Positions 3,501 through 39,258 of a stretch of DNA of 64,000 bases are shown in pieces; the stretch's first letter is position 1, and each line of letters opens with the position of its first letter. The DNA is from Isurus oxyrinchus. Taxonomy: Eukaryota. The notes below the pieces were generated by a model. The model was not told the origin of the DNA, did not search any database, and was given only the letters and a program-made list of their open reading frames with translations. Location of the stretch: positions 2,046,001 through 2,110,000 of the forward strand of contig JANJGN010000052.1 of assembly GCA_026770705.1 (NCBI GenBank), in the 5' to 3' direction. Both the position numbers and the translations under genes were made by a program.

Positions 3501-3593
3501 ATGGGAAGCTCCCAGATGAAATGGCGACTTGTCTTGTTCACTCTGACTTTGCTGCTCTCCCTGCAGCTGAGTCACTTCTTCTCCTTGTCGAGG
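3501..3593 (+). CDS. HAMP: Hepcidin exon 1 (signal peptide) MGSSQMKWRLVLFTLTLLLSLQLSHFFSLSR
   Basis: ATG downstream of TATA; hydrophobic signal; donor AGG|gtaagc; phase 0. Confidence 0.88.
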
Positions 3594-3789
3594 GTAAGCT
3601 AAGAGATGTCCCTCTGGGTGAGATGTTTCTTGCACATGACTCTACGTCTACCACCCAGATAGACTGGTCACTTCCGCAGTTTGATATTATTATGTTCGTG
3701 CCTTTAATATTGTCGCCCTCTATGAATTTAACATCATTTCCTTCTGTCGTTTCCCCTGAAATTCTCATTCTTGTTTTCAATCCCTCCTC

Positions 3790-4690
3790 AGCGACTCCCT
3801 ATCTCTGTAACCTCCTCCAGCCCGTACAACCCTCCCTATCTCTGTAAACTCCTCCAGCCCCTACACCCCTCCCTATCTCTGTAACCTCCACCAGGCCTTA
3901 CAACCCTCCCTATCTCTGTAACCGCCTCCAGCCCCTACACCACTCCCTATCTCTGTAACCTCCTCCAGCCGCTACAACCCTCCCTATCTCTGTAACCTCC
4001 TCCAGCCCCTACAACCCTCCCTATCTCTGTAACCTCCTCCAGACCCTACAACCCTCCCTATATCTGTAACCTCCTCCAGCCCCTACAACAATCCCTATCT
4101 CTGTAACTTCCTCCAGCCCCTACAACTGTCCCTATCTCTGTTACCTCCTCCAGCCCCTACAACACTCCCTATCTCCGTAACCTCCTCCAGCCCCTACAAC
4201 CCTACCTATCTCTGTAACCTCCCCCAGGCCCCACAACCCTCATGATCACTGTAACCTCCTCTAGACCCTACAACACTCCCTATCTCTGTAACCTGCTCCA
4301 GACCCTACAACCCTCCCTATCTCTGTAACCTCCTCCAGACCCTACAACCCTCCCTATCTCTGTAACCTCCTCCAGGCCCCATGACCCTCAGAATCACTGT
4401 AACCTCCTCCAGCCCCTACAATGCTCATGAACTCTATAACGTCCTCTCCACACTATAACTCTCCCTATCTCTGTAACCTACTGTGGCCCCTACAACAGTA
4501 TCTATTTTGGTAACCTCCTCCAGCCTCTACAACCCTCCCTACCTCTGTAACCTCCTCCAGCCCCCACAACCCCCCCATCTCTTTAACCTCCTACAGCCCC
4601 TACTCACCTCCCTATCTCTGTAACCTCCTACAGCCTCTAGAACCCTCCCTATCTCTGTAACCTCCTCCAGCCGGAACAACCCTACCTAAA
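3790..4690 (+). repeat. ~32-bp minisatellite in hepcidin intron 1
   Basis: Tandem ctatctctgtaacctcctccagcccctacaaccctcc; the same unit occurs in the L2 3' region at 56500-56790. Confidence 0.95.
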
Positions 4691-4744
4691 TCTCTGGTCT
4701 GAGTCTCACTCCAGGGAATTCAGTCCCATAACGTCGGTCAACAC

Positions 4745-5340
4745 TCCGTGCTGAGGGAGTGCTGCACTGTCAGAGGGTCAGTAGTGTGGAAGTGTTGCAC
4801 TATTGGAGGGACAGTACTGAGTGAGTGCTATACTGTCGGAGGTCAGTACTGAGGAAGTGCTGCATTGTTACAGGGTCAGTACTGTGGAAGTGTTGCACTG
4901 TCGGAGGGTCAGTACTGAGGGAGCGCTGCACTGACGGAGGGACAATACTGTGGGAGTGCAGCACTATCGAAGGGTTAGTACTGAGGGAGTGCTGCAGTGT
5001 CAAAGGGTTAGTACTGAGGGAGCACAACAATGTTGAATGAGACATTAAACTGAGTCCCCCGTCTGCCCTCTCGGGCGGGTGTGAAAGATCCCACAGCCAC
5101 TATTTGGAGGAAGAGCAGGGGGTGTTCTCCCCGGTGTCCTGGGACCAATATTTATCCCTCACCCAACATCACCAAAAACAGATGATCTAGGCCATGATCA
5201 CATTGCTATTTGTGGGATCTTGCTGTGCACAAATCAGCTGCCACATTTCCTACAGTGTGAGTGCACTTCAAAAACATCCTTCAGTGGCTGTGAAATGCTT
5301 TGGGATGTGGTGAAAGGCGTTAGAGAAATGCAAGTCTGTC
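4745..5340 (+). mobile_element. SINE with expanded 33-bp units at its 5' side
   Basis: gtactgagggagtgctgcactgtcggagggtca units followed by the SINE body ending tgaaaggcgttagagaaatgcaagtc; paralog at 7045-7725. Confidence 0.75.
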
Positions 5341-5436
5341 CTCCTCCCCCTCTCTCTCCTGTACCTCTCTCTCTCTCTCTCCCTCTCCCTCAATCCTCCT
5401 CTCACTTTCTCCCTGATAAATTCTTTCTTTTTGCAG

Positions 5437-5493
5437 GTTGACACTGCTTTCGGTTCTTCGACGATTGAGAAATCTGTGGATTCCCCGGACACG
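5437..5493 (+). CDS. HAMP: Hepcidin exon 2 (pro-region) VDTAFGSSTIEKSVDSPDT
   Basis: Strong acceptor ttctttctttttgcag and donor ACG|gtaggt; 57 nt, phase 0-0, in frame with exons 1 and 3. Confidence 0.85.
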
Positions 5494-6189
5494 GTAGGTG
5501 GAAATTCATTCCTTATTTTAAGGTTTCTCCCTGCTCGTTTCTTCCACAGAAAGTTTCCTGATTTCAAGCTGATTTCAGTGGCAGTCTGTCTCGGTTATAC
5601 TCAGGAGGCATGTTTGAAATCGAGCCCCCCCGCCACCCCTTTTTTTGCAAAGCTGGGAAGAGGCAATTCCAAGGAAGTGAACATATCCCCACAGGAATTT
5701 TAAATGTAACCCACGCCGGGAATAGTGAGAGGGAGACTGATCCAGCCTGGGAGTGGGTTAAAGAGAGGCTGGGAATCGAGAGTCGGAGAGAGGGATGGAA
5801 TGGGGGAGGGAGGGATTGGAAGAGAGAGACAGAGAGTGGGACGGGGAGGGGTGAAAGGGAAAGAACATAGGTGGGAGAGAGTGACAGAGGGAGAAATTAA
5901 AGAAGAGATGCAGAGTGAGGGAAAGTGAAAAGGGAAGAGAGATTGTCCAAGAGAGAGAAATTAACAGGGAAGGGAGAGTTACAGAGTGAGCGAAAGGTAC
6001 AAAAATAGTGTGAGAGAGAGGGAGAGATACAGAGTGGGAGAAGGAGACAGGGGAGAGAGAGGGAGAGAGACAGGAAAAGGGAGAGAGGAGAGAAAGATTG
6101 GGAGAGAGGGCAATTGAGAGGAAGAGTAGGAGAGAGAGAGACAGGGAGAGGAGGAGTGGATGAGAGGAAGAGAGAGAGATATGGAGCAG

Positions 6190-6342
6190 GAGAACACCTC
6201 CTCCGGTCCCGATGTTCCTCCAAAATCTCTGACATTACTGCATCTCCCGGGTCCCCCTGATTCCCATCGCTCCACCATTGGTGGCCGTGCCTTCAGCTGC
6301 CTGGGGCCCTGAGCTCCAGAATACCCTCCCTTAACCTCTCTG

Positions 6343-6378
<36 letters not shown>

Positions 6379-6545
6379 TTAAGACGCTCTTTAAAAACTG
6401 ACATCTTTGACCAAGCTTTTGGTCACCTATCCCTAATATCTCCATATGTGACTCAGTGTTAGACTTCTCTCTGATTTACGCTCCGGTAATGTGGGCTGGG
6501 ACATTTTGCAATGTCCGAGGCGCTGTGTAAATGCAAGTTGTGAGT
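6190..6545 (+). mobile_element. L2 LINE 3' end fragment
   Basis: ggccgtgccttcagctgcctgggg and the tail resemble the end of the L2 copy at 56840-57100. Confidence 0.65.
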
Positions 6546-7044
6546 GTTATGTGGAAGGGAGTCCCCAGGCGGCAGTCAGTGCCAGAGACTGGAGTCATTG
6601 TGTGCAGACCATATCTAATCTCTCCGAATGCACAATCGGTTTGACTGTCAGCCAAAGCACTTTTGATATTTGATCCTTCTAACTGTTTATAACCAGGCCT
6701 ACATCAAACACCGAGAGGTTGGTTAATCAACAGACACCTTAGAGGATCGAGTGAAAGACAAAGAGGACTTGCATTTCTCTAGCGCATTCCAACACATCAG
6801 GACGTCCCAAAGTGTTTCGCAGACAATCAAGTGCTTTTTTTCTTTCATGTGAGGTCACTGATGTACTGTGGGAAAAGAATCAGCCATTGGCGCACAGTAA
6901 GATCCCACAGACAGCAGCATGATAATGACCAGCGCGCTCCCAGTACTTGCACTGCAAGTGTCAGTTCAGGATGTGTGCTCGATTCTCTGCAACTCTCAGC
7001 TCTGAGTTAAAAGGACCACCAGGCATAATTGAGAAATTACCGAG

Positions 7045-7725
7045 CTGTCGGAGGGTCAGTACCGGCGGGGGGGCAGGACAGTCGGAGGGTCAGTACTGAG
7101 GGGGTGCTGCATTGTCAGACGGTCAGTCTTGGAGTGCTGCACTGTCAGAGGGTCAGTACCGGCGGGGGACTGCACAGTCGGAGGGTCAGTACTGAGGGGG
7201 TGCTGCATTGTGAGACGGCCAGTACTGAGGGAGTGCTGCACTGTTGGAGGGTCAGTACTGAGGGGGTGCTGCATTGTCAGACGGTCAGTACTGAGGGAGT
7301 GCTGCACAGTCGGAGGGTCAGTACTGAGGGGGTGCTGCACTGTTGAAGGCGCTGTCTTTCAGATGAGATGTTAAACTGAGACAACATCTGCCCTCTCAGA
7401 TGGATGTAGAGGATTCCATGGCCACAATTTAGATGAAGTGCGTCAGGAGTTGGGGGTATGTGTGGAGGGGGTGGTGGGGGGTGGATGGGGTGGAGTTATG
7501 TCCGCTTTCCTGGGGCAAACATTTATCCCTCAACTGACATTGGTAAAAAACTGAAAATCGGGGCCATTATCACATTTCTGTTTGTGGGATCTTGCTGTGC
7601 GTGAATTGCCTGCTGCGTTTCCTACATTACAGCGGTGAGCTCACTTCAGAAAAAGTCCTTCCTTCAGCTGTGGAACACTTTGGGCCATCCTGAGGAGGGG
7701 AAAGGCGCTATAGAAATGCGCCATC
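7045..7725 (+). mobile_element. SINE with 33-bp unit expansion
   Basis: Same organisation as 4745-5340. Confidence 0.75.
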
Positions 7726-7808
7726 CTCCTTCCAATGACGCGCCTGATTGAAATGATGCCTTCTTTCTTTCCGGAATGTTCTCACCTATTGTCCTCCTGC
7801 TTTTCCAG

Positions 7809-7925
7809 GGCTCCTTGCTGCAGCGCCAGAACAGAATGAGCAGACAGCAGCTCTGCAGATTCTGCTGTAACTGCTGTAATTGGAGAGAACCAAATGAGAC
7901 TTGTGGTATCTGCTGCATATTTTAG
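7809..7925 (+). CDS. HAMP: Hepcidin exon 3 GSLLQRQNRMSRQQLCRFCCNCCNWREPNETCGICCIF*
   Basis: Acceptor ctgcttttccag; hepcidin cysteine pattern C-x2-CC-x-CC-xn-CG-x-CC-x-F-stop preceded by RxxR sites. Confidence 0.93.
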   Translation, partial: GSLLQRQNRMSRQQLCRFCCNCCNWREPNETCGICCIF

Positions 7926-8224
7926 ACCCTGGCCTCATTCACGCAAGGTCATCCTGCACCATGCCACAGCCTCTCCCCTCCTTATCTACTGCTTAGCAAT
8001 CTATTTCACACAGGCCCTGTTCATTAATTCCAACTGAAACTTTACCTGCGTTTTACAGCAGGGAAAGAAGCCATTCGGCCCATCTGCTCCCGGCTGGTGT
8101 TTCTGCTCCACACGAGTCTCCGCCCACCCCTTCTCCATCTCACCCCATCACCATATCCTTCTATTCATTTCTCCCTCGTGTGTTTATCCAGCTTCCCCTT
8201 AAATACATCGACACTATTCACCTC

Positions 8225-8251
8225 ACGTGACTGTGTTTGTGTCTGTCTTTA

Positions 8252-8282
<31 letters not shown>

Positions 8283-8560
8283 CTGTCAATATGTGTGTGT
8301 CAATGTGAATGAGTGAGTGTGTCAGTGTGTCTGTGTGGGTGTGTGTGACTGTCAGTGTGTGTCAATGTGAATGAGTGAGTGTGTCAGTGTGTCTGTGTGG
8401 GTGTGTGTGACTGTCAGTGTGTGTCAATGTGAATGAGTGAGTGTGTCAGTGTGTCTGTGTGGGTGTGTGTGACTGTGTCAGTGTGTGTCAATGTGAATGA
8501 GTGAGTGTGTCAGTGTGTCTGTGTGGGTGTGGGTGTGTGAGTGTGCAAGTGAATGTGTGA
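8225..8560. repeat. (GT)-rich compound repeat
   Basis: Repeated gtgtgtcaatgtgaatgagtgagtgtgtcagtgtgtctgtgtgg. Confidence 0.9.
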
Positions 8561-10396
8561 GGAATCTTATGACTAAGTCATTTGAATGGATGTTACTGGG
8601 GTTAATGATAGTTAAAATTCAGAGAGATGTAAAGCGGGCTCCTGATTTTGCTGCTTTATGCTCCCGGGCACAGATTCACCCCGACAATGTGTTCATGATT
8701 CACCATTATCTTGTCGGGACTTTAATTGTAAAGATGATGATTTGTAAAAAAAAATGAATAAACAACTTTTGTCTTCGCAAAGTGTCTGGCTTGGTATTTC
8801 AGGCTACTTGTCTCCCCCTCACCCTCCCCCCCCACCATGCCCCCCACACCAGGGAACAATTGTCCCCCCTTCCTCTGAAGCTCTGGGTAAAGATCAGCTT
8901 TGTTCAATGCAAGCTGTTCCGACATCGAGAACGTTGTTACAAATATCTCACAAAGGGCACACGCCATGATAGCCCACTTTCAACAGATTTTACCAGTTGA
9001 CCAGGTTGAAAACCTTTTCATAAACCACAACGTAGGTGTTCAATTCTTGCTGCTGTTTGCTTAATGTTCTCATAACTGCTATAACCTCTCTAGTTCCACT
9101 ACATAACAACACCAACATAAATAAACAGAAGCAGGAGTAGGCCTTTTGGCCCCCCCAAGCCATCTTGTCCATTCAATTTGAACCTGGCTCCTGCTGAAAG
9201 TTATTTAAGTTGAAGCGATAAAGCCATCAGGTGCAGGGATTAAAATGTAAGCAAAGGAAAAATAATACTTAGAGATGAGAGTTAAAATCAGTTTCTGTCA
9301 AGTATCATAGTGAGGCCCATTGCTCTGGATTCCTTCTTTCCAGAGTGAAGGGTTTGAAACTAGGAGTCACATTCAGCAGCTGCATTGTCTTCTCTAGTCG
9401 ACTGTTTGGAGGTTGCCTGTAGATGTGAATCAGCAGGTCAGCAGCTTTGAGGAGTGAGTGAAGGTCCCTTTTATTTACAGGATCTGCCACAGGATGTGCA
9501 GGAATATTCCTGCTGAATCCCCCATCCTTGTATTCATGAAGGTTTTGAAACTGGAAGTCATATTCAGCAGCTGCAATGGCCTTTGTAGTCAACTGTCTGG
9601 AGGTTGCCTGTACAGGTGGACTCGGCATGTCAACAGCTTTGTTGGGCGGGGGACACGGGTAGTGAAGGTCCCTTTTCTTTAAAGGCTCTGCCAGTGCAAA
9701 ATTGATGATCCTGGGTCAAAATCATGTAACTCCCTCCCCAAAAGCACTGTGGGTGTGCCCTATGGATGTTCCTTGGCTTCGACAAGCAGCCTACCAGCTC
9801 TACTCTCAATTCCTCTTCGCACTTGCTTCCTTCCTCCTCTGGTCTTTACTTTGTTATAGTGTTAGTGTCCGCTCTGCCTTTTTTGTTGCTTTCCCAATTC
9901 TTCCCACCAACTCTCTCTGGCTTGATCCTGCTCTGTGCTCATCTCATTGGTTTGAGTTTCTATCCGTTCATTGACCTGGTGTAATCTGAAACTGGTGCAA
10001 TCAGGTAGGGGTGGGGGGGTTGGCGCTGGCCGTGGGTGGTGATACACGGCTACCTTTTTACCAAAATTCTTTCACGGGATGTGGACAACGTTTGTTACCT
10101 GTTTCTGACTGAGCCCTTGAGAAGGGGGTGCTGAGCTGCCTTTTCGAAGTGCTGCAGTTCGCCTGGTTTGACTGGTCTGTGGCGGGTTTTGATATCTCAG
10201 TAGCTTGCTCGGCCATTTCAGGGGCCAGTTAAGAGTCAACCACATTGCTGTGGGTCAGGAGTCACACGTAGGCCAGAATGGGTAAGGACGGCAGGTTTCC
10301 TTCCCCAAAGGGCATTAGTGACCCAGATGGGTTTTTGCAACAATTGGCCTTAGTTTCATGGTCACCATTACTGAGACTAGCTTCGCATTCCAGATG

Positions 10397-12600
10397 TCAC
10401 ATCCAGTCATGGACAATCAAACAACTCACTGGAGGAGGAGGCTCCACAAATATCCCCATCCTCAATGATGGAGGAGCCCAGCACATCGGTGCAAAAGACA
10501 AGACTGATGCATGCGCAACAATCTTCAGCCAGAAGTGCTGAGTGGGTGATCCATCTCGGCCTCCTCCTGAGGTCCCCAGCATCAGAGATGCCAATCTTTA
10601 GCCAATTCGATTAATTCCACGTGATATCAAGAAAGGGCTGAAGGCACTGGATATTGTAAAGGCTCCAGGCCCTGACAATATTCTGGCAATAGTACTGAAG
10701 ACTTGTGCTCCAGAACTTGCTGCACCCCTAGCCAAGCTTTTCTGGAATTTTCTAGTACAGCTGCAACACTGGCAACTACCCGGCTATGGGGTACGTCCTG
10801 TACACAAAAAGCAGGACAAATCCAACCCAGCCAATTCCCCAGCAGTCTATTCTTGATCATTACTAAAGTGATGGAAGCTGTCATCAACAGCGCTTGCAAG
10901 CAGCACCTGCTTACCAAGAACCTGCTCACTGACGCTCAGTTTGTGTTCCACCAGGATCATTCAGCTCCTGCCCTCATTACAGCCTTGGTTCAAACATGCA
11001 CAAATGAGCTGAACTCCAGAGGTGAGAGTGACTGCCCTTGACATCAAGGCAGCATTTGACTGAGTGTGGCAAATCAAGGAGCCCGAGCAAAACTGGAGTC
11101 AATGGGAATCGGGGGAAAACTCTCCGCTGCTTGGAGTCGTACCCAGCACAAAGGACGATGGTTGTGATTGTTGGGGGTCAATCATCTCAGTTCCAGGACA
11201 TCACTGCAGGAGTTACTCAGGGTAGTGTCCTAGGCTCAAACATCTTCAACTGCTTCATCAATGACCTTCCTTCCATCATAAGGTCAGAAGTGGGGATGTT
11301 TGCTGATGTTTGCACAATGTTCAGCACCATTCACGGCTCCTCAGATACTGAAGCAAGTTATGTCCAAATGCAGCAAGACCTGGACAACATCCAGGCTTGG
11401 GCTGACAGGTGACAAGTAACATTCATGCCACACAAGTACCAGGCAATGACCAGCTCCAACAAGAGAGAATCTAATTGAAGGTGCAGAAAATTTGGATTTA
11501 TGTTCAAGAGCCAGCCAGGACCAGCAGCTAGGGCGCCAAAGCGTACACATCCTTACGTGAAAACTTAAAAACCTGTACTAAGGGCTCAGTTGGAAATTTG
11601 CAATGAGGAAATGGGAGACACACACACAAGGACACTGGGTGACTCAATCAAGAAATGGGGAAGGTTATTTCACACCGTCCGATGGCCTTGAACCACATCC
11701 AGTCAGCCTCCGGAAACCTTTTGTATTGAACAAACATAGATTCTTTGCTGTCTCAAAAGGACAATAGCCAGTCTCTGCCCTGTAATTACTGCACAAGAAC
11801 ACAATTATCAGCCCACCGGAGGGTCATTGTGCTGTGGCCTTTGTCTAACTAATACCATTACCTTGTAACTGAGAGTAAAAATATATAAACTGTGCTCATT
11901 TGAACCTCGGTGGAGAAGCGCCTGGACTGCCCAGCGTTTGCTCCCCACATGCCTAATAAAGGAACCACTTGAATATTGCATCTGGAGTCCGAGTGTTGAA
12001 ATTTTGTACCAGAATATTCCACAGACCATTCATAACCATCGCCCCTTGGCATTCAATGGCATTACCATCAATGAATCCCCCAATATCAACATCCTGGGAG
12101 TTACCATTGAGCAGAAACTGAACTGGACCAGCCATATAAACACTGTGGCTGCAAGAGCAGGTCAGAGGCTGGGAACCCTGCAGACAGTAACTCACCTCCT
12201 GACTCCCCAAAGCCTGTCCACCATCTACAACGCACAAGTCAGGAGTGTGATGGAATACTCTCCACATGCCTGGATGAGTGCAGCTCCAACAACACTCAAG
12301 AAGCTCGACACCATCCAGGACAAAGCAGCCCGATTGATTGGCTCCCCTTCCACAGAGCTAGATAGATTCTTGATTAACAAGGGGGTGAAAGGTCATTGGG
12401 GGTAGGCAGGAATGTGAGGTTGAGGTGACAATCAGATCAGCCATGATCTTACTGAATGGCGGAGCAGGTTCGAGGGACTGAGTGACCTACTCCTGATCCT
12501 AACTCAGATATCCAGATGTTCTCAAAGGCAATTGGGGATGGGCAACAAATATTGGCCTAGTCAGCGACACCAACATCCCTGAAATGAATAAGAAAAAAAT
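10397..12600 (+). mobile_element. CR1-clade LINE ORF2 (RT) fragment, degenerate and interrupted
   Basis: KAPGPDNI, GVTQGSVLGSNIFNCFINDLP, GMFAD, NILGVTIEQKLNWTSHI motifs; stops and frameshifts; A-rich 3' end. Confidence 0.9.
11476..12032 (+). mobile_element. Solo LTR (ERV-like) inserted in the LINE
   Basis: TGAA...TTCA inverted termini; flanks taat/taac; TATATAAA 11882-11889; AATAAA 11955-11960; the LINE reads through once it is removed. Confidence 0.75.
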
Positions 12601-13849
12601 GTATCAATCAATTAAATTTATTGTTTAATCGAATTGAAATTCCTCCAGCTGCCGTGGTGGGATTTGAACCCGTGCCTTCAAAGCATTCACCTGGGCCTCT
12701 GGATCACTGGCCTAGTGCCATTCCCATTGTGCGACTGTCTGCTATCATCATGGCTCTTTCACATCGATGTGGAAGTCTTGATAACAGAAGCATTGGACGA
12801 GGTACAGAAAGGTGACAAATCAGGAGCTCCATTGCTCAATATGAACGGATAATAAAGATAAATGAACATAAACCTTCCAGTCGCTAATTAGGGAGTCACT
12901 GTGGAGCCCATGAGTCCCTCGCAGCGCTATTGCAACCTTCTGGATCCCCAGTAGGGGACTCGGGGTGCAGCTGTGTCTTCGTCATCATTTGGAAAAGCCG
13001 GAATTGTTCGGGTGCCCCTTCAAACAGGCCGAAGATGCAGTGGGTGATGTCTCCCACAGGCCCTGGGAGACCTCCCCTGCCAATTTGTTTTGTAGCTTAT
13101 TCTTCAACTGCGACATTGGATCAGCTTGAAAAAGGGTGAGGCTGAGGCAATACCACCAGGTAAGCGTCTATCCCCTCACACGTCACCCCCCTCCACCCCC
13201 GTAACCGTCACAGTCCCTCCCATCGTGCTGGAGGAGCATAATGTGCACATTCCCCTCCTTCCAATCAGTCTCCTCCCTTCCTCTCTAATCCTTGATCTTA
13301 TTGTGTTCGGGGTTGACATCCCAGTCCTCCTCCCTAGACTGTCTGATGTTGACATCCCAATGCCCCATGTAGACCTGACCTCTCTCCAACTAGAGGCCCA
13401 TTGTACTGTGACTTACAGAGACCACCGGCCCCCCTCGATTCCCACCCCCACCTCTACCCTCTATATTACCTGCTCCCCACTGACAGGCTGCAGATGCCTC
13501 CCCTGACTGGGATTGTGCCACCTGCGGCCTAGTATCAAGCCACCCACCCCCAGGACCGACGTGTGTGAGGGACTGACCACGTCACTCACACCATGCTGGG
13601 CACCACCAACCCAGGACTGCCAGGCTCTCCCCACCACACTGGACTGGGACTAGAATAGGCGTGCCAAGCACAGCTCTCTAAATCGTGGCGCAGACCCACA
13701 GCAGTCGCAATGTTTTGTGGCCCGAATCCTTGCTGAGGAACTGCCCAGCACTAAAAGCAAAAAAACTGCAGATGCTGGAAATCCAAAACAGAAACAGAAA
13801 CAGAAATACCTGGAAAAACTCAGCAGGTCTGGCAGCATCGGCGGAGAAG

Positions 13850-14300
13850 AACTGAGGGAGTGCGGCACTGTCGGAGGTTCAGTACTGAGGGAGTGCTGCA
13901 CTGTCGGAGGGTCTGAACTGAGGGAGTGCTGCACTGTCGGAGGCTCTGAACTGAGGGAGTGCTGCACTGTCGGAGGCTCTGAAATGAGGGAGTGCTGCAC
14001 TGTCGGAGGGTTTGAACTGAGGGAGTGCTGCACTGTCGGAGGGTCTGAACTGAGGGAGTGCTGCACTGTTGGAGGGTCTGAAATGAGGGAGTGCTGCACT
14101 GTCTGAGGGTTTGAACTGAGGGAGTGCTGCACAGTCGGAGGGTCTGAACTGAGGGAGTGCTGCACTGTCGGAGGGTTTGAACTGAGGGAGTGCTGCATTG
14201 TCGGAGGGTCTGATCTGAAGGAGTACTGCACTGTAGGAGGGTCTGAACTGAGGGAGTGCTGCGCTGTTGGAGGGTCAGTACTGAGGGAGTGCTGCGCTGT
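13850..14300 (+). repeat. 33-bp tandem array
   Basis: gaactgagggagtgctgcactgtcggagggtct units. Confidence 0.95.
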
Positions 14301-14999
14301 CTAAAGAACATTGTACAAATTGCACAAAATTGCATCTGATGCCTGTGTCTCATGCTAACATGAAGTTCATGCACACAACAGGAATATTTCTCGCTGTTTC
14401 TCAGCAGCAAGACAGCTTTGATATCACACCACCCACTGGCAAGTGTGTGCAGTTACAATGTGACATGTTTACATTGGAAATTTCTATTATAAAGATGGAC
14501 AGAGGAATTCATCTGATTGGAAAACGTGACAACATGAAGTAATGTCTTTGAGCCAAGAATTTTGCAGCAAAATAAGAATTTTAATCTTTAAATATCTACA
14601 GAACAGGCTGAGCATTTTAATCACTTGAGTTAATCAATGTAATTTTATTCATAAGCCAAATGCTTCTTACAATCTATCGCAGCATGAAAAAGGTGCAGCA
14701 TTCAGAAAGCACATTCCAATCAGAGAACAGAGTTTAGCAACGTCACATTTCTGTTCATTCCTATTCGACCATGTTGGCTGCACACAGCCAGACAATGCCG
14801 TGGTTATGATGTGTCCACACAGCAGGACTGGGGAGCACCAGGTATAAGGAAAAGTTTCAGCTTGCTGAGGAGAAGAAGGAGAATCTCTCGTTCCAGGTTT
14901 CTCTCCGTACATTAAGAAGCAGGCATGCCGATGTTTCATTGCACTCTGTCTGCTGATGGGAGTCCGCTTGGAAATTGTTGTTTGTGCTGATGGAAAGAA

Positions 15000-15610
15000 T
15001 AAGCTTTTCATAAATCGAGGGATTGAGAACAAACACAGGGAGGTTATGCTGAACATTTATAAAGCTCTGGTTAGGTCACAACTAGAGTATTGTGTCCAGT
15101 TCTGGTCTCCTCACTTTGGGAAGGAAGTGAGGGTCCTTGAGAGGGTGGGGAGGAGATTGAGCAGAATGGGTCCAGGGATGAGGGATTTTAGCTACAAGGT
15201 TGGGTTGGAGAAGCTGGGGTTGTTCTCCTTGGAGCAAAGGAGATTGAGGGGGGATCTGATCGAGGTGTACAAGATGATGATGGGTTTAGATAAGGCAGAC
15301 AAAGAGAAGCTGTTGCCATTAGCTGATGGTACAAGGACTGGGGGACACAGATTGAAGGTTTTGGGCAGAGGGGGGATGTGAGGAGTAACTTTTTTACACA
15401 GCGAGTGGTAATGAGCTGGTACTCTCTGCCTACGAGGATGGTGGAAGCGGAGACGATGAACGATTTCAAAAGGAAATTGGATGGACACTTGAGGGGAAAT
15501 AACCTTGCAGGGATACGGGGATAGAGTGGGGGAATGGGACTGACTGGATTGCTTTACAGAGAGACAGCATGGAGTCGATGGGCCGAATGCCGTCCTTCTG
15601 TTCCATGATG
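15000..15610 (+). mobile_element. CR1 LINE 3' fragment (inverted duplicate at 42830-43420)
   Basis: VMLNIYKALVRSQLEYCVQFWSPH...LEQRRLRGDLIEVYK. Confidence 0.9.
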
Positions 15611-15631
15611 AGACTGTTTCTGTACAAAGCT

Positions 15632-15771
15632 TCAAACAGTCTGTCGACTTCCTTTCACTGTTTGTCTCTCCCAGACACAGACTCCAGCGATAGTGATAAC
15701 CACAGCCACAAGGAATATCACAGCTCGTATTCCCAGGATCAGGATCACGTGCAGAATCTCTCCTCCACTGT
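15632..15771 (-). CDS. Siglec A terminal exon: Arg-containing TM plus short tail, (D)SGGEILHVILILGIRAVIFLVAVVITIAGVCVWERQTVKGSRQTV*
   Basis: Acceptor tttctgtgtgttctctag; phase 1; hydrophobic helix with one Arg; stop TGA at 15634-15632. Confidence 0.8.
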
Positions 15772-17440
15772 CTAGAGAACACACAGAAAGAAATCATCAC
15801 TGACTCTCCGCTTTCAATCTCTCACTCTGGCTGAACAATCAAGCTTCATATCACTGCAACATTTGCTGGAATATTGACCCATCCACTGGGATTCAATGTG
15901 GAATGAATGTTTTCATTGTAAACACTCTAAGAGTGGACAATCGGAACTTTCCCCTTAGCGTGGAACATTGGTGAGAATGGATCATTGTGCTGTTGGACTC
16001 CCTGTCCAATGTTTCTCTCCATCGCTGTGTACAGGATTGTGCTGTAGAAAATTCTGGAAACGTTTAGTGCAGGGTAGAAATCCATCTCGGACGCGTGTGC
16101 GAATCGGGCAAGATCGAGATGGACTCCCCCATGGACTTACACCCCCCGCTTAATAAACAGTTCCAATCTTTACCCAGAGAGAGGGGAGAATGTGGAACTC
16201 GCTCCCACAGGGAGTGGTCGAGGTGAACAGTATCGATGTATTTAAGGGGCAGGAGGGTCGGTAACCAGAGGGACACAGATTGACGAACCGGAGGGGGAGA
16301 TGAGGAGAATTTGTTTTGACAGAGCGAGTTGTTGTGATCTGGAAGGTTCTGCCTGAAAGGGCAGTGGAAGCAGATTCAATAGGAACTTTCAAAAGGGAAA
16401 TTGGATAAACACTTGAAGGAGGAAGATGGGGGCAAAATGGAGTGGTGGTTAGTGGATCTGATGGGATAGAACATTGAAAGACCTGGCACAGGCACAATGG
16501 GCTGAATGGCCTCCTCCTGTGCTGTATCATTCTCCGCTTCCATGATCTCTCCCCCAGTCAGTAACCACTCCAGATCCCTCTTGAAGGTGACAGAGAAACA
16601 GCAACCACCACACCCACTGACAGCACATTCCCGAGGATCACTACTCTCTGGGAAAAGATGAACTCCCCAACATCCAGCCTATTCCTGCTTCCCGGAGAGT
16701 GTAAACCCTTCAGGGAGGCACTGAGGAAGTTTTCAATAAAATGACATCAAATCCACCGTTTGAGAAATAATTGAATTCCGATGAACTCACAGCTTGTGTA
16801 GCAAACTGGGAAGTGGAGTTGCTGGGAAAGCTGGGAAACACAAGGATTAAGGGCTACAATGCCACCACTGGTGGGAGGCTGTAACTACAGCGTGACGTTT
16901 ACATAGGCAGTCATCATTATAAACAGGGGCATTGCACATAATGGGAATTATGTGCACGGAAATAGTGAGAACATTATGTAAGCTTTTCACCAGCAGGAAT
17001 TCTCTTCCTAAACCTCTCCAACTCTCTCTTACTCTCAGATACACAAAGAAAATGACACAGAATCAGATAAGGAAGAATTAGGTTGGTGATTCGTCAAAGG
17101 GTTAGGTTTCAGGAAGCTTCTTAAAAGGAGAGAGAGAGTTGGAGACGCAGAGAGTATCTGTGATTGTCTCTATGCATCTGAGTGTCTGTAATAGTAATTT
17201 CCATATTCTTCCATAAATATGAATGGGAACACAAATCCCAGAATTCAGGCCAACTCTCCAGTGCAGTACTGAGGGAGGTCAGGTAACCCATGAGGGAGTG
17301 AGTGTTAGTGTTTGTGTGTGAGTGTGTCTTTGTGTGTGTTCATATATGTGTGTCTGCACGTGTCTATTTAGGTGTGTATGTTCGATGGTGTTTGTGTCGT
17401 GTTCGAATCTGAGAGAGATGTTGAAGTCTGTGTAACTCAC

Positions 17441-17592
17441 GTTCCACAGTGATGGTTATGAACCCATCCACTGCTCCATGTTCATTCTCTGCCACACACT
17501 GATAGTCTCCAGTGTCCCTGGAGGTAATGTGAGGAATCACCAACCACAGCTCATTGTTGGAACTTGTTCTGTTCATTTGGACATTCAGATGT
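17441..17592 (-). pseudogene. Siglec A 5'-truncated third Ig (C2) exon
   Basis: Matches only the 3' half of exon 30903-31184; first Cys and acceptor absent; in-frame TGA directly upstream; donor gtgagt kept. Confidence 0.85.
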
Positions 17593-17916
17593 CATGGCAG
17601 GAATCAAGAAGCCCGTTCACAGGATTACCAACAGAAAGTGAACAACAATTTATACTTAATGGGAAGAGAGTGCTGATTGGTTGGCAAGTGGTCTCTGATA
17701 GGTGGAGGTGTTGCCATGGAGAATGGTGTGTGCGAGATGTAAAGTTTAGACAGCTTGTCTCTTCATTCAGCAATAATCATATAAAGATCAATTAACTTCT
17801 ATCGACTTTGAAGCACTTAGAGAGGCCTTAGAATGTGGATACAGAGAACGGGCTGCACTGTCAGAGGGTCTGCGCTGAGGGAGTGCTGATGTAGCATGAA
17901 AGGTGTATGTAATTAC

Positions 17917-18213
17917 CTTGCACAGTTAGTACAAGGGTCCGCTCCGATGAAACAGATGGATATCTCACTCTGCAGCTGAGAGTGTGTCCGTGGTGTTTGA
18001 GTGATGGGATCAGGGTCAGAACAGAAGTATAGGTCAGAGTGACACCATGCTGAGTTACAGTGTTTGAGAGTGATCCAGGTACGTCAGTGGGAGTGTCCCA
18101 GGTTAAGACAGGTGCTGCTGTTCCATTTCACGTTGTGTTGAAGGTGCAGCTTACATCCACACGCTTTCCTGCAATAATTTCAGCAGGGAATATCATGGGT
18201 TTATCTGTGAAAT
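17917..18213 (-). CDS. Siglec A C2-set Ig domain 2 exon
   Basis: 297 nt, phase 1-1, ag/gt boundaries; DFTDKPMIFPAEIIAGKRVDVSCTFNTTCNG...HGHTLSCRVRY. Confidence 0.88.
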
Positions 18214-19525
18214 CTAACAGACAGAGAATGGATTCTTTTAGAGAAATATAACGTGAAGCATCAGTTCAAATAGAAATCACAGTCCCACACGAGAAAGCAC
18301 GTTTACAAGGATGATATCAGAACTGAGAGGTTACAATGATCATTAAAGAATTGTCTATTTTTACACTTGTTGAATCTCTGTCACTCAGATTAATACACTC
18401 TCACTCAGTGACCCTTGATTTGACCAGACTGGGTGAGGGTGGAGGAACAGCTCACAGCTCGGGGAGAACAGACTCAGCATTTGGAAAAGGATATGGAGAC
18501 ACTGGAGAGGGTGGTAAAAAGCTTCACAAGGATGATCTCAGCAATGTGAGGCTTTACCTATCAGGAGAGGCTGAACAGGCTGGGACTCTGTTCTCTTGAA
18601 CAGAGAAGGTTGAGGGGTGACCTCATTTGACCTTTGAAGTAATGAAAGGTTTTGATCGAGTAGACATGGAGAGAGTGTTTCCACTCCTCACAATGAACAA
18701 AACCAGAGGCTGACAATATAAGATCCTCACTAATAAATCCAATGGGGAATTCAGGAGAAAGTTCTTTACCCAGAGAGTGGGGAGAATGTGTGCTTCAAGA
18801 ATCACTTCATTGACTGTGAATTGATTTAGGATCGTCCTGATGTGAAAGGCGCTATGGAAATGCGAGACTTGGTTTTGTGTTTTGAAAGCAGGTTTCCAAG
18901 GATGAGATGGGAACTGAGAGGTAACAACAATCAGCAGCAACTTTCCTATTTTCAAACTTGGTGGGGAATGTGTCACTGAGCTGAATACACTTTCACTCCC
19001 AGACCCTTGAATTGCCAACACTGGGGTGTGGGTGATGGAGCAGCCCACAGCTCATGGAACCCTGGCTCATCGTTCTCTCAGAGATCTGGGTCACTGATCC
19101 CATTGCTCTCTGTGGGAGCTTCCTGTGAACAAACTCACTGCCACGTTAGACAGTGACTATACTTCAAGAATTTCTTCATTGTCTGTGAAGTGATTTGAAG
19201 TTTGCTGAGGTGGTGTAAGGCGCTATAGGAATGCACATCCTTCTTTTGTCAAATTGTTAGACTTTTAAAAAGCATTAGGTAGACTGATGGGAGTGGATAA
19301 CCTGATAACATTGATGGACACAGTCAATACATTTAATCATTGATATTAAAGTGAGTATTAGAGGTTGCTTTAGGACTGAACTGGAAGCTATCACCAGGTT
19401 ATTGAGAATCAGACAGTGTGTTATAATAAGCTGTGTTTTGTGTTAATATGTAAACGTCACAGTTTGTGTTATTTCCCATTGAGTGTTGAATGTGAATTGG
19501 TGAGTAATTATAACACAGCACTTAC

Positions 19526-19894
19526 CAGAAACGTGAAGCTGGGTTACAGGGTAATAGTTATGGCTCGGACCATTGTCAAATTCTATCCTGAAAAAATAAG
19601 GTCCTGCATCTTCCCGTCTGATGTTGTTTATAATCAGGGAACAGTCGCCATCTTTCAGGTCTCCAGACAGCCGGGTCCGATGGTGGAACCGTGGTAACTC
19701 GTGACTGTGATCCTTGGAGTGAAAGGCAATGGGAGCCCAGGGAATCTGTTCCTCATTATTAAACCAGACTCCACCTCGTTGTTGGTTTTCCAGACACGAT
19801 GGATAACTGTAATGACATGGAATCTGTACACACGAACCTTCCTGCGCTGTCACCTCTCGTGGAGTGTCACCTTTCCACTCTTGTGACAGTCCAA
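19526..19894 (-). CDS. Siglec A V-set sialic-acid-binding domain exon (essential Arg present)
   Basis: 369 nt, phase 1-1; EGSCVQIPC, GDCSLII and DAGPYFFRIE Siglec signatures. Confidence 0.92.
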
Positions 19895-20758
19895 CTGTGG
19901 AGAGAAATATCAATATTTAACCCTGGATCCTCATTGTCTAAGGGATTATTTCTGATCCAAGCCCCATATTGTTGTATTGTTGATTCCGATGCAGCATTGT
20001 AGACTGACTTGTCCCCAAGCTCAGCACTGACCCTACTCCAGCAGACACTGTGAAACACACTAACAAAGTGCCTCTAGCTTGAGCTCTGCCTGTGTCGAGA
20101 GAAAGACAAATATGCAAACTGAATATTGACACCTTTACACACGGACAGCTTTACCTTCCTTCTCTCTTTCAGTTATCTTGCTCCCTTATTGAAGTATCTA
20201 GCAAGGTGAGAATGGACAGGAAGTGTGACACTGAACAGCCTGTCTATTCTAGGAGCTGCTGTGTTGTCTTCATGGGAAATTCTGACTAAAATCAGCAAAA
20301 GACACTAATTTCAGGCCATTGCTGTCAGAGTCCTAGCCACAAGATAGACTTCATCCCCTGAATTTTGTGTCCAATTTTCCACTCAAGCTTTCACCTCCGC
20401 ACACACCCACCCCGACCCCAAATGTCACTCGCTGACCTACACTGGCTCCCAGTCCAACAACACCTCGATGTGATTATTTTCACACTTGATTTCCAATCCC
20501 TCCATCACTCCGCTCCACTCCCTGTCTCTGTAACCTACTCAAACCTACAACCCTCTGTGATCTCTGCACTCCCCCAATTCTGCTGTCAGACAGGGAGTCA
20601 GTGTATATCAGGGAGCACAGGGGTGATGGGTGAATGGGACTTGGTGTGAGTTTGTGCACTGGGTCACTGCTGAATTGGTTCCGAATCACAGCTCAATAAG
20701 AATGATCTTTTACGAAGACTATTAACCATAAATCTGTCTGAGCTGACGATGATATTAC

Positions 20759-20840
20759 CTTGGAGAAGTGACAGGAGGCAGTAATATTTCCCAATTATTG
20801 TCCACTCCCAGATATTCCTTTAGCTTCTGACTCTCAAACT
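20759..20840 (-). pseudogene. Siglec A leader exon with the start codon changed to ATA
   Basis: 82-nt paralog of 45927-46008; reads ATA ATT GGG AAA TAT TAC TGC CTC CTG TCA CTT CTC CAA G|gt; in-frame TAA upstream. Confidence 0.8.
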
Positions 20841-21248
20841 CTGAAAGAGAAAGGAGTTAATGAGACCTCACCTCTTGTCCGACAGCTCTCGAGAGATCAG
20901 AACTCCTTTTACATAATGTCTACACAGACTAATTTGGTTCTCTGTGGGATGACAGGTGCTCTGCAGAGAGTTAAAAAGCTTTAAAAAAATAAATCAATGA
21001 AGGACTTGCATTTCTATAGCACCTTTCACCACCTCAGGATGTCCCAAAGCTCATGTCCCTGCACTTCCATCATCCCTTGAGCTAGAAAGATGTTCTGTAC
21101 AACAGACTTGAGCCTCACACCCAGATCTCAAGAATCAGTAGAAATCTTTCAAAGGCATCAATCATTGGAATCTGTCTTTATAAAGTCACAACATCAACAA
21201 AGGACGGTGTTGGTGGTGGAAGTGAATTCCAATCGTTCCGTTACTTAC

Positions 21249-21400
21249 CCAGGACCTGTCCGACTGCTCGCCTGGGGAGGAACTGCCCACACGCTCTGCT
21301 TGGGCTGAATGACCTCTTCCTGTGCTGCTCCCTCTGTGTATTTAATGAGAAAGGGTTGATGTGTCACTGTGAGACAAAATGAGGAAGTTGCATCAAAGTG
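21249..21400 (-). promoter_or_regulatory. Siglec A promoter / non-coding exon 1
   Basis: PU.1-type AAATGAGGAAGT site, AT-rich box, TCATTC initiator-like motif, donor ctgg|gtaagt; paralog of 45375-45518. Confidence 0.6.
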
Positions 21401-27830: not shown

Positions 27831-27835
27831 TGATT

Positions 27836-30775: not shown

Positions 30776-30902
30776 GAATTGTCTGCCTGAATTAAGTGCT
30801 TTGTGGTGAAGGAACCTACATTGATATCACACCTTTCACATTCTCAGGGTGTCTCAAAGCGTTTCACAGTCAATGTAAGTAATGATCTTTATTTGTTTTC
30901 AG

Positions 30903-31184
30903 ACACACCACAGAATCTCTCAATTAATTCTCTTGATATGATTAACGCTTCATCAATCAATATAATTGAGGGGAATTCTGCAGTGATAATCTGCTCTGTC
31001 GAGAGCTTCCCAGCTTCTAACCTGACGTGGCAACATCTTAATGTCCCAATGAACAGAACAAGTTCCAACAATGAGCTGTGGTTGGTGATTCCTCACGTTA
31101 CATCCAGGGACACTGGAGAATATCAGTGTGTGGCAGAGAATGAACATGGAGCAGTGGAGGGGTTCATAACCATCACTGTGGAAC
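30903..31184 (+). CDS. Siglec B intact third Ig (C2) exon, MAG domain-3-like
   Basis: 282 nt, phase 1-1; IIEGNSAVIICSVESFPASNLTW...DTGEYQCVAENEHG; sequons NLS, NAS, NLT, NRT. Confidence 0.88.
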
Positions 31185-31219
31185 GTGAGTTACACAGAAT
31201 TGAACGTTCTCTTGTTGTT

Positions 31220-32260
31220 AGCTCATGGGATGTGGGCATTGTTGACAAGACCAGAAATTATTGCCCATCTGTAACTGCCCCTTGAGAAGGTGGTGGTGAG
31301 CTGCCTTCTTTAACCACTACATTCCCTGTGGTGTAGGTACACCCTCAGTGCTGTTAGGGTGGGAGTTCCAGGATTTTGTCCCAGTGATGGTGAAAGAACG
31401 GCCAATATATTTCCAAGTCCCAGGGCAGACCACCACCTCAAGTTCGCTTCCAAATCACACACCTCACTGACTTGGAACTGTCTTGGTGGAAGAGGTTAAG
31501 AGTTTGGAAGGTGCTGTCGAAGGAGCCTTGGTGAGTTGCTGCAGTGCATCTTGTAGATGGTGCACACACTGCTGCCATTGTGTGCCAGTGGTGGAGGGTA
31601 TGAATGTTTATGCTGGTGGATGGGCTGTCGATCAAACAAGCTGCTCCTGGATGGTGTCGAGCTTCTTGAGTGTTGTTGGAGCTGCACTTATTCAGGCAAT
31701 TGGAGATTATTCCATCACACTCCTGACTTGTGCCTTGTCGATGGTGGACAGGCTTTGGGGGGTCAGGAGGTGAGTTACTCACCGCAGAGTTCCCAGCCTC
31801 TTACCCGCTCTTGTAGCCACATTATTTCCTGTTGCTGGGTTGTTGCCAGGGCCAATAGCCTTTGCTGTATCCAGTATCATCAGCTAATTGCTGATGTCAC
31901 GTGGAGTCAATCGAATTGTCTGAAAGCTGACATCTGTGATGCTGGGACCCTCTGGAGGAGGCCGAGATGGAGCATCCACTCAGCACTTCTGGCTGAACAT
32001 GGTTGCCAATGCTTCAGCCTTGTCATTTGCACTGATGTGCTGAGCTCCCCCATCATTAAGGATGGGGATATTTGTGGAACATCCTCCTCCTGTTAGATCT
32101 TTAATTGTCCATCACCATTCATGACTGGATGTGGCAGGACTGCAGAGCTTAGATCTGACCCGTTGGTTGTGGGATCGCTTTGCTCTGTCTATAGCATGTT
32201 GTTTCCGCTGTTTGGTGTGTATGTAGTCCTGTGTGTCACCTCAGCAGCTTGGCACCTCTG
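31220..32260 (-). mobile_element. CR1-clade LINE fragments
   Basis: Reverse-complement similarity to segments of 10397-12350. Confidence 0.8.
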
Positions 32261-32450
32261 TTATATGTGAATCCTCCTTATAGAAACCTGCATGTACATG
32301 GATATTATCAATAAATATTACATAGATAAATGTTATTTGTATAGACCTTTCATGCATAGACAATATCACTTCACAAGTTCAGAATTACTACATGTACATA
32401 GAGAACCATTCTCAAACTGTACCGGAGTCATTCATTGGCTGATTTTACAG

Positions 32451-32547
32451 GGCGAGATTCCAATGAATGGAAAGCAGGATTGCTTGGAGCTGGAATCTGT
32501 TTGAGTGTTGGACTGAGTGGATTCTTCATCTTCAAGTGTGTGAGAAA
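32451..32547 (+). CDS. Siglec B neutral TM exon (R)RDSNEWKAGLLGAGICLSVGLSGFFIFKCVR(K)
   Basis: Acceptor gattttacag, donor AA|gtaagt; phase 1 in, phase 2 out; uncharged helix followed by a basic stop-transfer. Confidence 0.78.
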
Positions 32548-33199
32548 GTAAGTGTGAAGGTTTAATTGGTTGTTTTTGAAAATGTTTTCTTCAAACTTCT
32601 CTCCTTATAGAAAGAACTTGCATTTCTATAGCACCTTTCACAACCCAAAACCCTTCACAGCCCCTGAAGAGCTTTGATGTTCACCTACTGTTTAACATCT
32701 CATCCAACATTCACTGTTTCACAACTCAGTCCTGTAACTGGCAGTGTTGACCCGGACCATAAGATACCTTGTGACCTACTGAGGATGTGAAAGGAGCTAT
32801 ATAAATGAAAACCTTTCTTTTGTTAGTGAATGCAATCTCTTTCCTCTTTCCATGTTTCATTCACTCTCTCCAATCTCCACTAATGCTCTCCTTCTCATTC
32901 TCTCTCTCATCCTCCTACACGTTGTTCAGTCTCTCACATTTTTAAGGAGCGCTGAGCAACATCTGCTCCTTCAGAAGATCCACCTCAACAGCTGGATTGA
33001 GCAGTGAATTGAAACTCGCTCAACGACTGCTCAGCTTTACACAGGAATCACGACACAGAGTCAGGACACAAAGGGTTAACAGTTTGTTTACAACACAACA
33101 CTAAGGCCCTACGTTTCAATGAAAGGGTTTTCACAATTGTTCCCCAATTCCTGATTTGATTCACAGAGACACATCAACCCTTTCTCATTAAACACACAG

Positions 33200-33284
33200 A
33201 GGGAGCAGCACAGGAAGAGGTCATTCAGCCCAAGCAGAGCGTATGGGCAGTTCCTCCCCAGGCGAGCAGTCGGACAGGTACTGG
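33200..33284 (+). other. Copy of the promoter/exon-1 module that could serve as an in-frame 85-nt cytoplasmic exon
   Basis: Paralog of 45430-45518; cacacag|A...TGG|gtaagt is open and phase 2 to 0. Confidence 0.4.
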
Positions 33285-33798
33285 GTAAGTAACGGAACGA
33301 TTGGAATTCACTTCCACCACCAACACCGTCCTTTGTTAATGTTGTGACTTTATATATAATCAGATTCCAATGATTGATGCCTTTGAAAGATTTCTACTGA
33401 TTATTGAGATCTGGGTGTGAGGCTCAGGTCTGTTGTACAGAACATCTTTCTGGTTAAATTATGCAGACAGGTTACACACAGTCTACGATTATATTCCCTC
33501 AGGTCTAGAAGATTAAAGGAGTGATGTAACTGAGGGGTTCAAACTGATTAAACACTCGATAGGGTCGATAGAGAGAAGCTATTCCCTCGGGTGGGGGTGG
33601 GTGGTGGGGGTCGGGTGGAGTCCAGAACAAGGGGGCTGGAACTTCAGATTGGAGCCAGGCCGTTCAGGGGTGATGTCAGGAAGCACTTCTTCACACAAAG
33701 GGGAGTGGAAATCTGGAACTCTCTCCCCAATAATCAAACCCAACACCGAATACACATCATGTTGATTGTCACTCTGTCCATTTCCATCTCTATTACAG

Positions 33799-33903
33799 AA
33801 GAGAGGCGAGGTGAAAGCAGGAATCAAATCGAACCATCGTGTTGATGAATATCGAGGTCCTGTTTATGAAAACTGTGAGCGTGGTTGGGCTTTGAGGAAT
33901 CAG
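33799..33903 (+). CDS. Siglec B cytoplasmic exon KRGEVKAGIKSNHRVDEYRGPVYENCERGWALRNQ
   Basis: Acceptor ccatctctattacag, donor CAG|gtgagt; phase 0-0; YENC motif. Confidence 0.75.
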
Positions 33904-34034
33904 GTGAGTCACACACCACAGGATCCCCAGCCTCTCAGCTGCTCCAGTAGCCTGGTTATTGATATGGCTGCTCCAGTCCTGTATCTGCAATGTTTTATAC
34001 AGTCACTCCCAAACCCAACCAAACTCACACCCAA

Positions 34035-35160: not shown

Positions 35161-35247
35161 ATGTATGTATTGTGGGTGGAATTTTCGATTTGGATCAATA
35201 ATACTAAACACTGATTGTCACTCTGATCATTTCTGTTTCTATTACAG

Positions 35248-35364
35248 AAGAAAGATGAGAAGGATCTGGAAATGAAATCTAACCGCGGAGTCAATCCTGA
35301 TACAGATGATGATCTTTACGCAAACTGTACTTTTGCCAAGGATTCTGTTTATGGGAATTTATAA
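35248..35364 (+). CDS. Siglec B terminal exon KKDEKDLEMKSNRGVNPDTDDDLYANCTFAKDSVYGNL* (ITIM SVYGNL)
   Basis: Acceptor ttctgtttctattacag; phase 0; ends in an S-x-Y-x-x-L motif then a stop. Confidence 0.78.
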   Translation, partial: KKDEKDLEMKSNRGVNPDTDDDLYANCTFAKDSVYGNL

Positions 35365-39045: not shown

Positions 39046-39258
39046 ATGGTCTATAGCCTTTCACTCCGAGGGTCACAGTCACAGGGATCAAAGATTCCGC
39101 CATCGTACCCGGCTGTCTGGAGACCTGAAAGATGGCGACTGTTCCCTGATTATAAACAACATCAGACGGGAAGATGCAGGACCTTATTTTTTTCAGAATA
39201 GAATTTGACAGCAGTAATAGTTACAGCTACTATCCTGTAACCCAGCTTCACGTTTCTG
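39046..39258 (+). pseudogene. Siglec C 5'-truncated, frameshifted V-set exon
   Basis: Starts mid-domain (WSIAFHSEG), fused to promoter sequence; T7 instead of T6 before the Arg codon; donor intact. Confidence 0.88.

Follow-up and report, generated by a model that had tools for sequence, protein, structure and literature searches.

A hepcidin-Siglec pair of the shark Isurus oxyrinchus as a probable unit of a co-amplified array beside an old hepcidin-Siglec-FFAR2 block

Introduction

Is a hepcidin gene that faces a Siglec gene in a shark genome part of an ancient neighborhood, or the product of a later rearrangement? The question is raised by 64,000 nucleotides of the Isurus oxyrinchus assembly GCA_026770705.1 (contig JANJGN010000052.1, positions 2,046,001 to 2,110,000; this whole stretch is called the window), in which two such genes lie in convergent orientation. 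The human block with which they can be compared has the order USF2-HAMP-MAG-CD22-FFAR, and an earlier note on the window had read the pair as its mirror. We propose, with good confidence, that the window belongs, as one of its units, to a hepcidin-Siglec array of several megabases, which was built by repeated segmental duplication from an old hepcidin-Siglec-FFAR2 block still present next to it. The larger finding is this co-amplified array, with its anchor and its divergent hepcidin family; the claim of synteny is correct in part and of an ordinary kind. The earlier note had missed that the Siglec gene of the pair, here Siglec A, is broken, that hepcidin and Siglec are both highly amplified, and that the convergent layout is recurrent, whereas the surviving block has the two genes on the same strand. 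Contigs of the assembly are given as C-numbers, the window being C52:2,046,001-2,110,000.

Results and Discussion

The hepcidin gene of the window has three coding exons on the forward strand, encoding the signal peptide (3516-3593), the propeptide (5437-5493), and the mature peptide with its eight cysteines (7809-7925). All four splice sites are GT/AG, and the joint 3593/5437 (GT..AG) is seen in sequencing runs X1 and X7, which represent one sample, presumably RNA, and are used here as contigs only. A TATA box stands at -87 (about 3429), the minimal furin site RQNR precedes the mature peptide, and exon 3 passes the Pfam Hepcidin model (PF06446) with 33.6 bits against a cut-off of 27. By its three exons, its signal, pro- and mature peptides, its eight cysteines, its PF06446 match, and its furin-type site, the gene belongs to the hepcidins. 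Its mature peptide starts with MSRQQ, not MSHLS, and has a net charge of +1.

Siglec A, on the reverse strand, ends in a stop codon (15632-15634) that lies 7,707 bases from the hepcidin stop, which bears out the convergent spacing of about 7.7 kb given before. It has the marks of a Siglec in alignments to Siglec-5, Siglec-8, and MAG and in Pfam: a V-set domain with B- and E-strand cysteines and an extra inter-domain cysteine, followed by a C2-set domain. It is a pseudogene. The leader exon (20758..20798) has lost its start codon (ATG to ATA), the C2-set exon (17917..18213) has an in-frame TGA at about 18128-18130 at a C2 cysteine, and the third immunoglobulin (Ig) exon (17441..17591) is present as its 3' half only. 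The V-set exon (19526..19894) is open, with the Siglec cysteines and the F-strand Arg in place. Since the terminal exon (15632..15771) encodes a transmembrane segment with an intramembrane Arg and a short tail without tyrosine motifs, the gene would have been of the activating type. Further upstream on the same strand, an exon-like segment (21249..21329) resembles a tail exon of the Siglec family. Three of the four MAG-like motifs once quoted for Siglec A are found in it; the fourth, IIEGNSAVIIC, is at 30962 in another fragment, because the third domain of Siglec A lacks its 5' half.

The window pair is one of many. Whole-genome pattern searches, for which reversed-pattern controls gave 0 matches, returned 793 sites of Siglec V exons, 502 Siglec leader exons, with 70 exact leader matches on C52 alone, and 86 hepcidin exons of the array type, of which C52 has 29. 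A V-exon search gave 1,043 candidates, and the 150 scored were all at least 92% identical. The array is spread over unplaced contigs, the seven largest measured having 4.17, 2.55, 1.51, 1.24, 0.99, 0.65, and 0.57 Mb. The 284 contiguous kb around the window contain two hepcidin genes, transmembrane exons of three kinds, many broken pieces, and Siglec genes in which the number of V exons ranges from one to ten. Among the listed consecutive V exons of C52, 20 of 26 are open, and 18 of these 20 have the F-strand Arg. In all three array copies with flanks examined, the hepcidin faces a broken Arg-type Siglec at a distance of 7.1-7.7 kb, and the window pair is therefore a repeated module. The 28 array hepcidin loci that we sampled have a mean identity of 97.3%, and are 89-91% identical to the canonical gene on contig C34, introns and flanks included. 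Over 2.2 kb, no two of them are identical and a single pair out of 378 exceeds 99.8%, so haplotype doubling cannot create the array. The closest database relatives of the array Siglecs are from Carcharodon (96%) and Cetorhinus (94%), and all 111 matches come from sharks and rays.

Of five multi-exon Siglec models of the array (n=5), C, E, and F look intact, and D and G have one lesion each. Siglec C starts in the window on the forward strand (5' part, 45969..60056) with a leader, a first V exon in which the Arg is absent, a second in which it is present, and a C2 exon; it runs 10 kb beyond the window to its transmembrane and tail exons, all ten exons being open. Its tail has an immunoreceptor tyrosine-based inhibitory motif (ITIM) and a motif like the switch motif (ITSM), the sequences being LLYANI and TEYAQI. 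The array Siglecs are likely to act as paired inhibitory and activating receptors with predicted binding of sialic acid. One gene has ten tandem V exons at a spacing of about 2 kb (C52:2,280,276-2,299,937), one of them with a 1-base deletion. A second, distant V-set exon is also amplified in the array (L191:6759-7121 on C71; L196 on C385; C52:2133987 and 2173364). It matches sialoadhesin and MAG best, has no F-strand Arg, has a stop at its end, and stands about 5 kb upstream of a hepcidin in three places; it is likely an orphan remnant of another Siglec.

The surviving block is found on C34, a contig of 19.9 Mb, which carries 2 of the 78 Pfam hepcidin matches, both starting with MSHLS after RQKR. 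Downstream of this HAMP1-type pair, in the same orientation, come the starts of three Siglec genes, two of which have transmembrane and tyrosine-bearing tail exons. An FFAR2-like gene (300.6 bits) lies at 15.509 Mb, 0.27 Mb from the hepcidin pair and upstream of HAMP, so that hepcidin, same-strand Siglec, and FFAR stand together at 15.13-15.51 Mb. A PP2A scaffold gene is found at 15.11 Mb and a CMKLR1-like receptor gene at 14.92 Mb. Exons 1-4 of the PP2A-A gene border a 100-N gap of C34; the later exons were not found in 190 kb on the left side of the gap, and stand at an end of C150 and again at an end of C121. The last 745 bases of C150, which are rich in repeats, also form an overlap with C34 at 90%. 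The array is therefore placed 3' of PP2A-A, about 90 kb from the canonical pair. The order and spacing of the hepcidins on C121 and C150 differ away from the PP2A-A end, which suggests that haplotypes vary in structure, as those of KIR clusters do, or that the contigs are misassembled.

The 3' flank of the window hepcidin (8290..13752) is collinear, at about 88-92%, with that of the canonical C34 gene. The Siglec beyond 13.75 kb is inverted, and the convergent layout is therefore likely derived, with a probable breakpoint in satellite DNA near 13.8-14.3 kb. On the other side, the DNA upstream of the array copy beyond about -125 (787-3117 in the window) matches C34:15,218,083-15,215,766, which is 10.8 kb upstream of the canonical hepcidin; the distal promoters of the two hepcidin types therefore differ. 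In the scheme that we favor, one hepcidin copy and its downstream Siglec would have been duplicated, and the Siglec of this second pair would have been inverted to face the hepcidin and would then have decayed. The module would have been copied many times together with the Siglec cluster, in a process of birth-and-death evolution, and the canonical C34 pair would keep the role of iron hormone.

The idea of a mirrored mammalian block has partial support from C34, with its HAMP1-type gene, same-strand Siglec, and FFAR2, and none from the window pair, which is a derived, inverted, and amplified copy. Human FFAR2, HAMP, USF2, and MAG are described as near each other in the available portion of PMC4453067. 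C34 resembles that block in having HAMP followed by a same-strand Siglec of MAG/CD33 type and an FFAR2-like gene on the same contig; it differs in that FFAR2 lies upstream of HAMP and that LSR and CD22-like exons lie on contigs that are unplaced. USF2, LSR, MAG, and CD22 were not found in C34 14.92-15.72 Mb, a stretch of 0.8 Mb with four gaps. LSR is on C452 and C1620 and CD22-like exons on C2274, all small unplaced contigs, and positions 1-200 kb of C452 (487 kb) contain LSR and no hepcidin, Siglec, or USF motif. Two degenerate USF2 patterns had 0 matches in the genome, a weak negative because they missed USF1 too; none of the 87 matches of an HLH family search was on C34 or the array contigs, another weak negative. 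For MAG, where the negative is weak as well, one motif gave 6 genome matches against 6 in the control, a search for Ig_CD22 was dominated by array exons, and no recognizable MAG was seen among 150 representative sequences. In four of five other elasmobranchs, the hepcidin record and Siglec records agree in the length of their longest contig, which implies one scaffold or chromosome but not adjacency. Because C34 has a HAMP1-type gene, Siglec, and FFAR2 and the records of these four species imply that hepcidin and Siglec are on one scaffold, the hepcidin-Siglec-FFAR2 linkage likely predates the split of sharks and bony fish, as had been claimed.

A second human locus offers a comparison. The human CD33-related Siglec cluster comprises about a dozen genes and is flanked by PPP2R1A and FPR1-3. 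According to the accessible text of PMC6288428 it is located at 19q13.4. The shark array resembles that cluster in its tandem V-set plus C2-set receptors, with an essential Arg, ITIM and ITSM-like tails, forms with charged transmembrane segments, and many pseudogenes. It also adjoins a PP2A scaffold gene and a gene for a chemoattractant G-protein-coupled receptor, which we liken to PPP2R1A and FPR1-3. It differs in having hundreds of gene starts, 1-10 V exons per gene, the Arg within the transmembrane segment, a clade of its own among elasmobranchs, and hepcidin and FFAR2 alongside. We tentatively suggest, at somewhat less than even chances, that lamniform sharks, independently of teleost HAMP2, evolved a separate hepcidin family with dozens of diversifying members that are not hormones, within an innate-immune complex of hundreds of paired Siglecs, at a site that still joins markers of human 19q13.1 (HAMP, FFAR2) and 19q13.4 (the CD33-related cluster, PPP2R1A). 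A strong reading of these markers is weakened by the one PP2A-A exon tested, which scored slightly higher with the beta than with the alpha isoform, and by the C34 receptor, which is closer to CMKLR1 than to FPR1.

The array hepcidins diverge from the canonical ones in a distinctive way. We examined 23 of the at least 29 copies on C52, one of which lay partly outside the examined stretch. The full frame of 83 codons with eight cysteines is present in 21 of the 23; 14 of these have every splice site as well. The full-frame copies encode 13 distinct mature peptides; most have the furin site RQKR, and 2 of the 21 have lost its first Arg. An SHLS-type N terminus, the mark of HAMP1, is found in none of 28 array loci, against both C34 genes, and the five hepcidins found in other elasmobranchs are all of the MSHL type. 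Among the C52 copies, amino acid changes affect 13 of 72 sites in the mature peptide, compared with changes at 22 of 309 intron sites (p=0.011) and 5 of 121 in the signal and propeptide (p=0.002). Compared with the canonical gene, the array peptides differ at 33-36% of nonsynonymous sites in the mature peptide (25-29% of the few silent ones) and at 5-8% in the signal and propeptide. In X1 and X7 the depth over exons is about 100-fold or more above that over unique bins of the introns, and joints across each intron use the predicted GT..AG sites. Transcription of array-type genes in this sample is suggested by contigs of intron sequence that resemble the window at 98-99%, together with depth over the diverged core. 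Runs X20 and X24 have no cover of the hepcidin exons, which does not show silence. A homologue search with the array hepcidin exon alone gave no candidate.

A similar division is known in teleosts, where sea bass hamp1 has an SHLS-type N terminus and sea bass hamp2 shares the CRFCCNCC core of the array peptides (both in the portions of PMC8502971 consulted). In the HAMP1/HAMP2 system of teleosts, as in the shark, one conserved HAMP1-type gene with SHLS accompanies many diversified copies without it, all with three exons and eight cysteines. The array is at most an analogue: it is 89-91% identical in DNA to the HAMP1 locus of the shark itself, and its origin is therefore independent of the teleost HAMP2 duplication. 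Horizontal transfer of a teleost HAMP2 was also ruled out, since the similarity to the canonical gene of the shark extends through introns and flanks, and a long cysteine loop was discarded as an array-specific trait, being present in all five hepcidins of other elasmobranchs. We give about even chances to the idea that the array hepcidins, having no HAMP1 N terminus, are peptides secreted for host defence and shaped by diversifying selection, which would parallel, independently, the HAMP1/HAMP2 split of teleosts.

Several observations weigh against this account of the array and its peptides. Only C121 and C150 are anchored to the C34 gap, C52 being placed by shared content alone. C121 and C150 also look allelic, all eight segments compared from exon regions being at 99.2-100%, so the copy numbers in the assembly may exceed the haploid ones by up to a factor of two. 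The duplication of the same PP2A-A exons on C121 and C150 and the unplaced state of the array contigs are what one would expect if the amplification were mostly an assembly artefact, made of uncollapsed haplotypes and duplicated reads. We consider this very improbable: no identical pair was seen among the 378, one contig alone has 29 copies, the mature peptides are of 13 kinds, and gene architectures differ within the 284 contiguous kb. Haplotype doubling explains a factor of two, not of forty. A more serious contender, which we regard as possible but rather doubtful, sees the hepcidin copies as passengers of Siglec cluster turnover, a single divergent hepcidin having been carried along while drifting. 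The three copies examined have the identical convergent broken Siglec neighbor, and broken Siglecs and the orphan V exon are amplified too, so hepcidins may be passengers. Moreover, an inactive donor of intron 1 (GT to TT) is common to 7 of the 21 full-frame copies, and 1 of 23 is frameshifted. The net charge drops from +5 in the canonical peptide to +1 or +2 in the array, which disfavors a stronger cationic antimicrobial. The ratio of 13 nonsynonymous to 1 synonymous changes is not significant alone (sites 72:15), and gene conversion and CpG effects lie outside the test; the RNA support consists of contigs in which loose ends reveal canonical transcripts as well. Against mere drift stand the eight cysteines in 21 of 21 full-frame copies, the nearly invariant signal peptide, the concentration of variation in the mature peptide, and the array-type intron contigs and spliced joints in the RNA.

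The remaining alternative concerns the Siglecs: the window pair would mirror USF2-HAMP-MAG-CD22, and the Siglecs would have arisen locally from a MAG-like ancestor, which would explain the CD33-related Siglecs. Besides the HAMP-Siglec-FFAR2 order on C34, it draws on PDB matches, in which MAG is among the top ones: over three domains, MAG D1-D3 reaches 123.9 bits and CD22 53.7. Yet Siglec-8 ties with MAG at that score, and for the V domain of Siglec A, which matches Siglec-5, -8, -7, MAG, and CD33 with 55-62 bits, Siglec-5 ranks first. A FastTree phylogeny of 87 rows, in which only 30 representatives are named and the other labels were guessed from sequence, sets the array apart from the CD22/sialoadhesin rows (support 81), in favor of this alternative. 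On the other hand, it shows the array as an elasmobranch-only clade (100) in an open polytomy, outside the tetrapod CD33-like clade (99) and hence not nested in the CD33-related one, in a tree without a MAG row. Unlike a MAG orthologue, expected as a single conserved five-Ig gene, the array has hundreds of copies with variable domain numbers; it has the traits of CD33-related Siglecs, namely, clustering, an ITIM and ITSM-like tail (gene C), and Arg-transmembrane partners (A and B). The weak negatives for USF2 and MAG, on C34 and genome-wide, also count slightly against this alternative, which we consider unlikely as a whole; a MAG-specific origin of the array Siglecs is just as doubtful. Cao and colleagues are said to have described, in 2009, a common ancestral Siglec region.

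If the co-amplified array is as we describe it, a Siglec cluster interleaved with hepcidins that number at least 29 on a single contig and 86 in the whole assembly, it differs from teleost families and is far larger than the 6 genes of large yellow croaker (PMC6240063) and the 12 of Nile tilapia (PMC8774982), as numbered in the available parts of these papers. For seabream, the title of a paper speaks of a 'massive expansion'. The array could then provide a second, independent split between iron-hormone and defence-type hepcidins, in which the two forms occur in the same genome and are short enough for synthesis and comparison. Large variable Siglec clusters with inhibitory and activating forms would not be confined to tetrapods. 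This contrasts with a statement in the accessible part of PMC7226832 that fish lack inhibitory (ITIM-bearing) CD33-related Siglecs, in which sharks are not mentioned. The anchor beside HAMP/FFAR2 and the PP2A scaffold gene makes the origin of the CD33-related cluster testable by synteny, and if the joint reading of 19q13.1 and 19q13.4 is true, the array would mark the place of the variable Siglec cluster in the ancestor of jawed vertebrates. RefSeq models of elasmobranchs with the automatic names Siglec-10/12/13-like, CD33-like, and MAG-like belong to the same family as the array. No shark hepcidin or Siglec expansion was found in our literature searches, and neither the array size nor the co-amplified hepcidin is described in the literature searched; supplementary gene-family tables and subscription papers may bear on this novelty. 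In the available main text of two Greenland shark genome papers, hepcidin and Siglec are absent, and that of a whale shark paper has one passing mention of a Siglec.

Other features of the window and related contigs

Two further Siglec pieces lie on the forward strand of the window. A headless fragment (30902..35358) has one C2 exon, a transmembrane exon, and three tail exons. Siglec B (39020..42702) is a broken inverted duplicate of Siglec A, with a truncated and frameshifted V exon, a C2 exon, a broken half exon, and an Arg-type transmembrane exon. Minisatellites with units of about 43, 33, and 24 bases (26541-29230 and 33908-35200) give rise to long false open reading frames.

On C34, a broken stretch at 15.657-15.663 Mb (L170-L171) resembles an endogenous retrovirus and has pol, integrase, and env-like fragments, and a V-set exon at 15.72 Mb (L176:9473-9844) presumably resembles B7-family genes. 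On C452, a single-exon open reading frame for a two-Ig membrane protein (159.7-161.1 kb; L140-L141) lies 100 kb from LSR; we take it to be FAM187-like and near LSR as in the human block. The CD22-like V exons of C2274 (68,745-78,678; L177-L178) group with a Carcharodon CD22-like sequence, and one of them ends in YYC without the Arg. Finally, C1037 (149,421-181,296; L182-L186) carries a Siglec gene of another kind, which has seven Ig exons, an ITIM/ITSM-like tail, and relatives in Heptranchias, Pristiophorus, and Mobula. Its last Ig exon is 91% like that of the array and the others 31-44%, which suggests exon exchange between this gene and the array.

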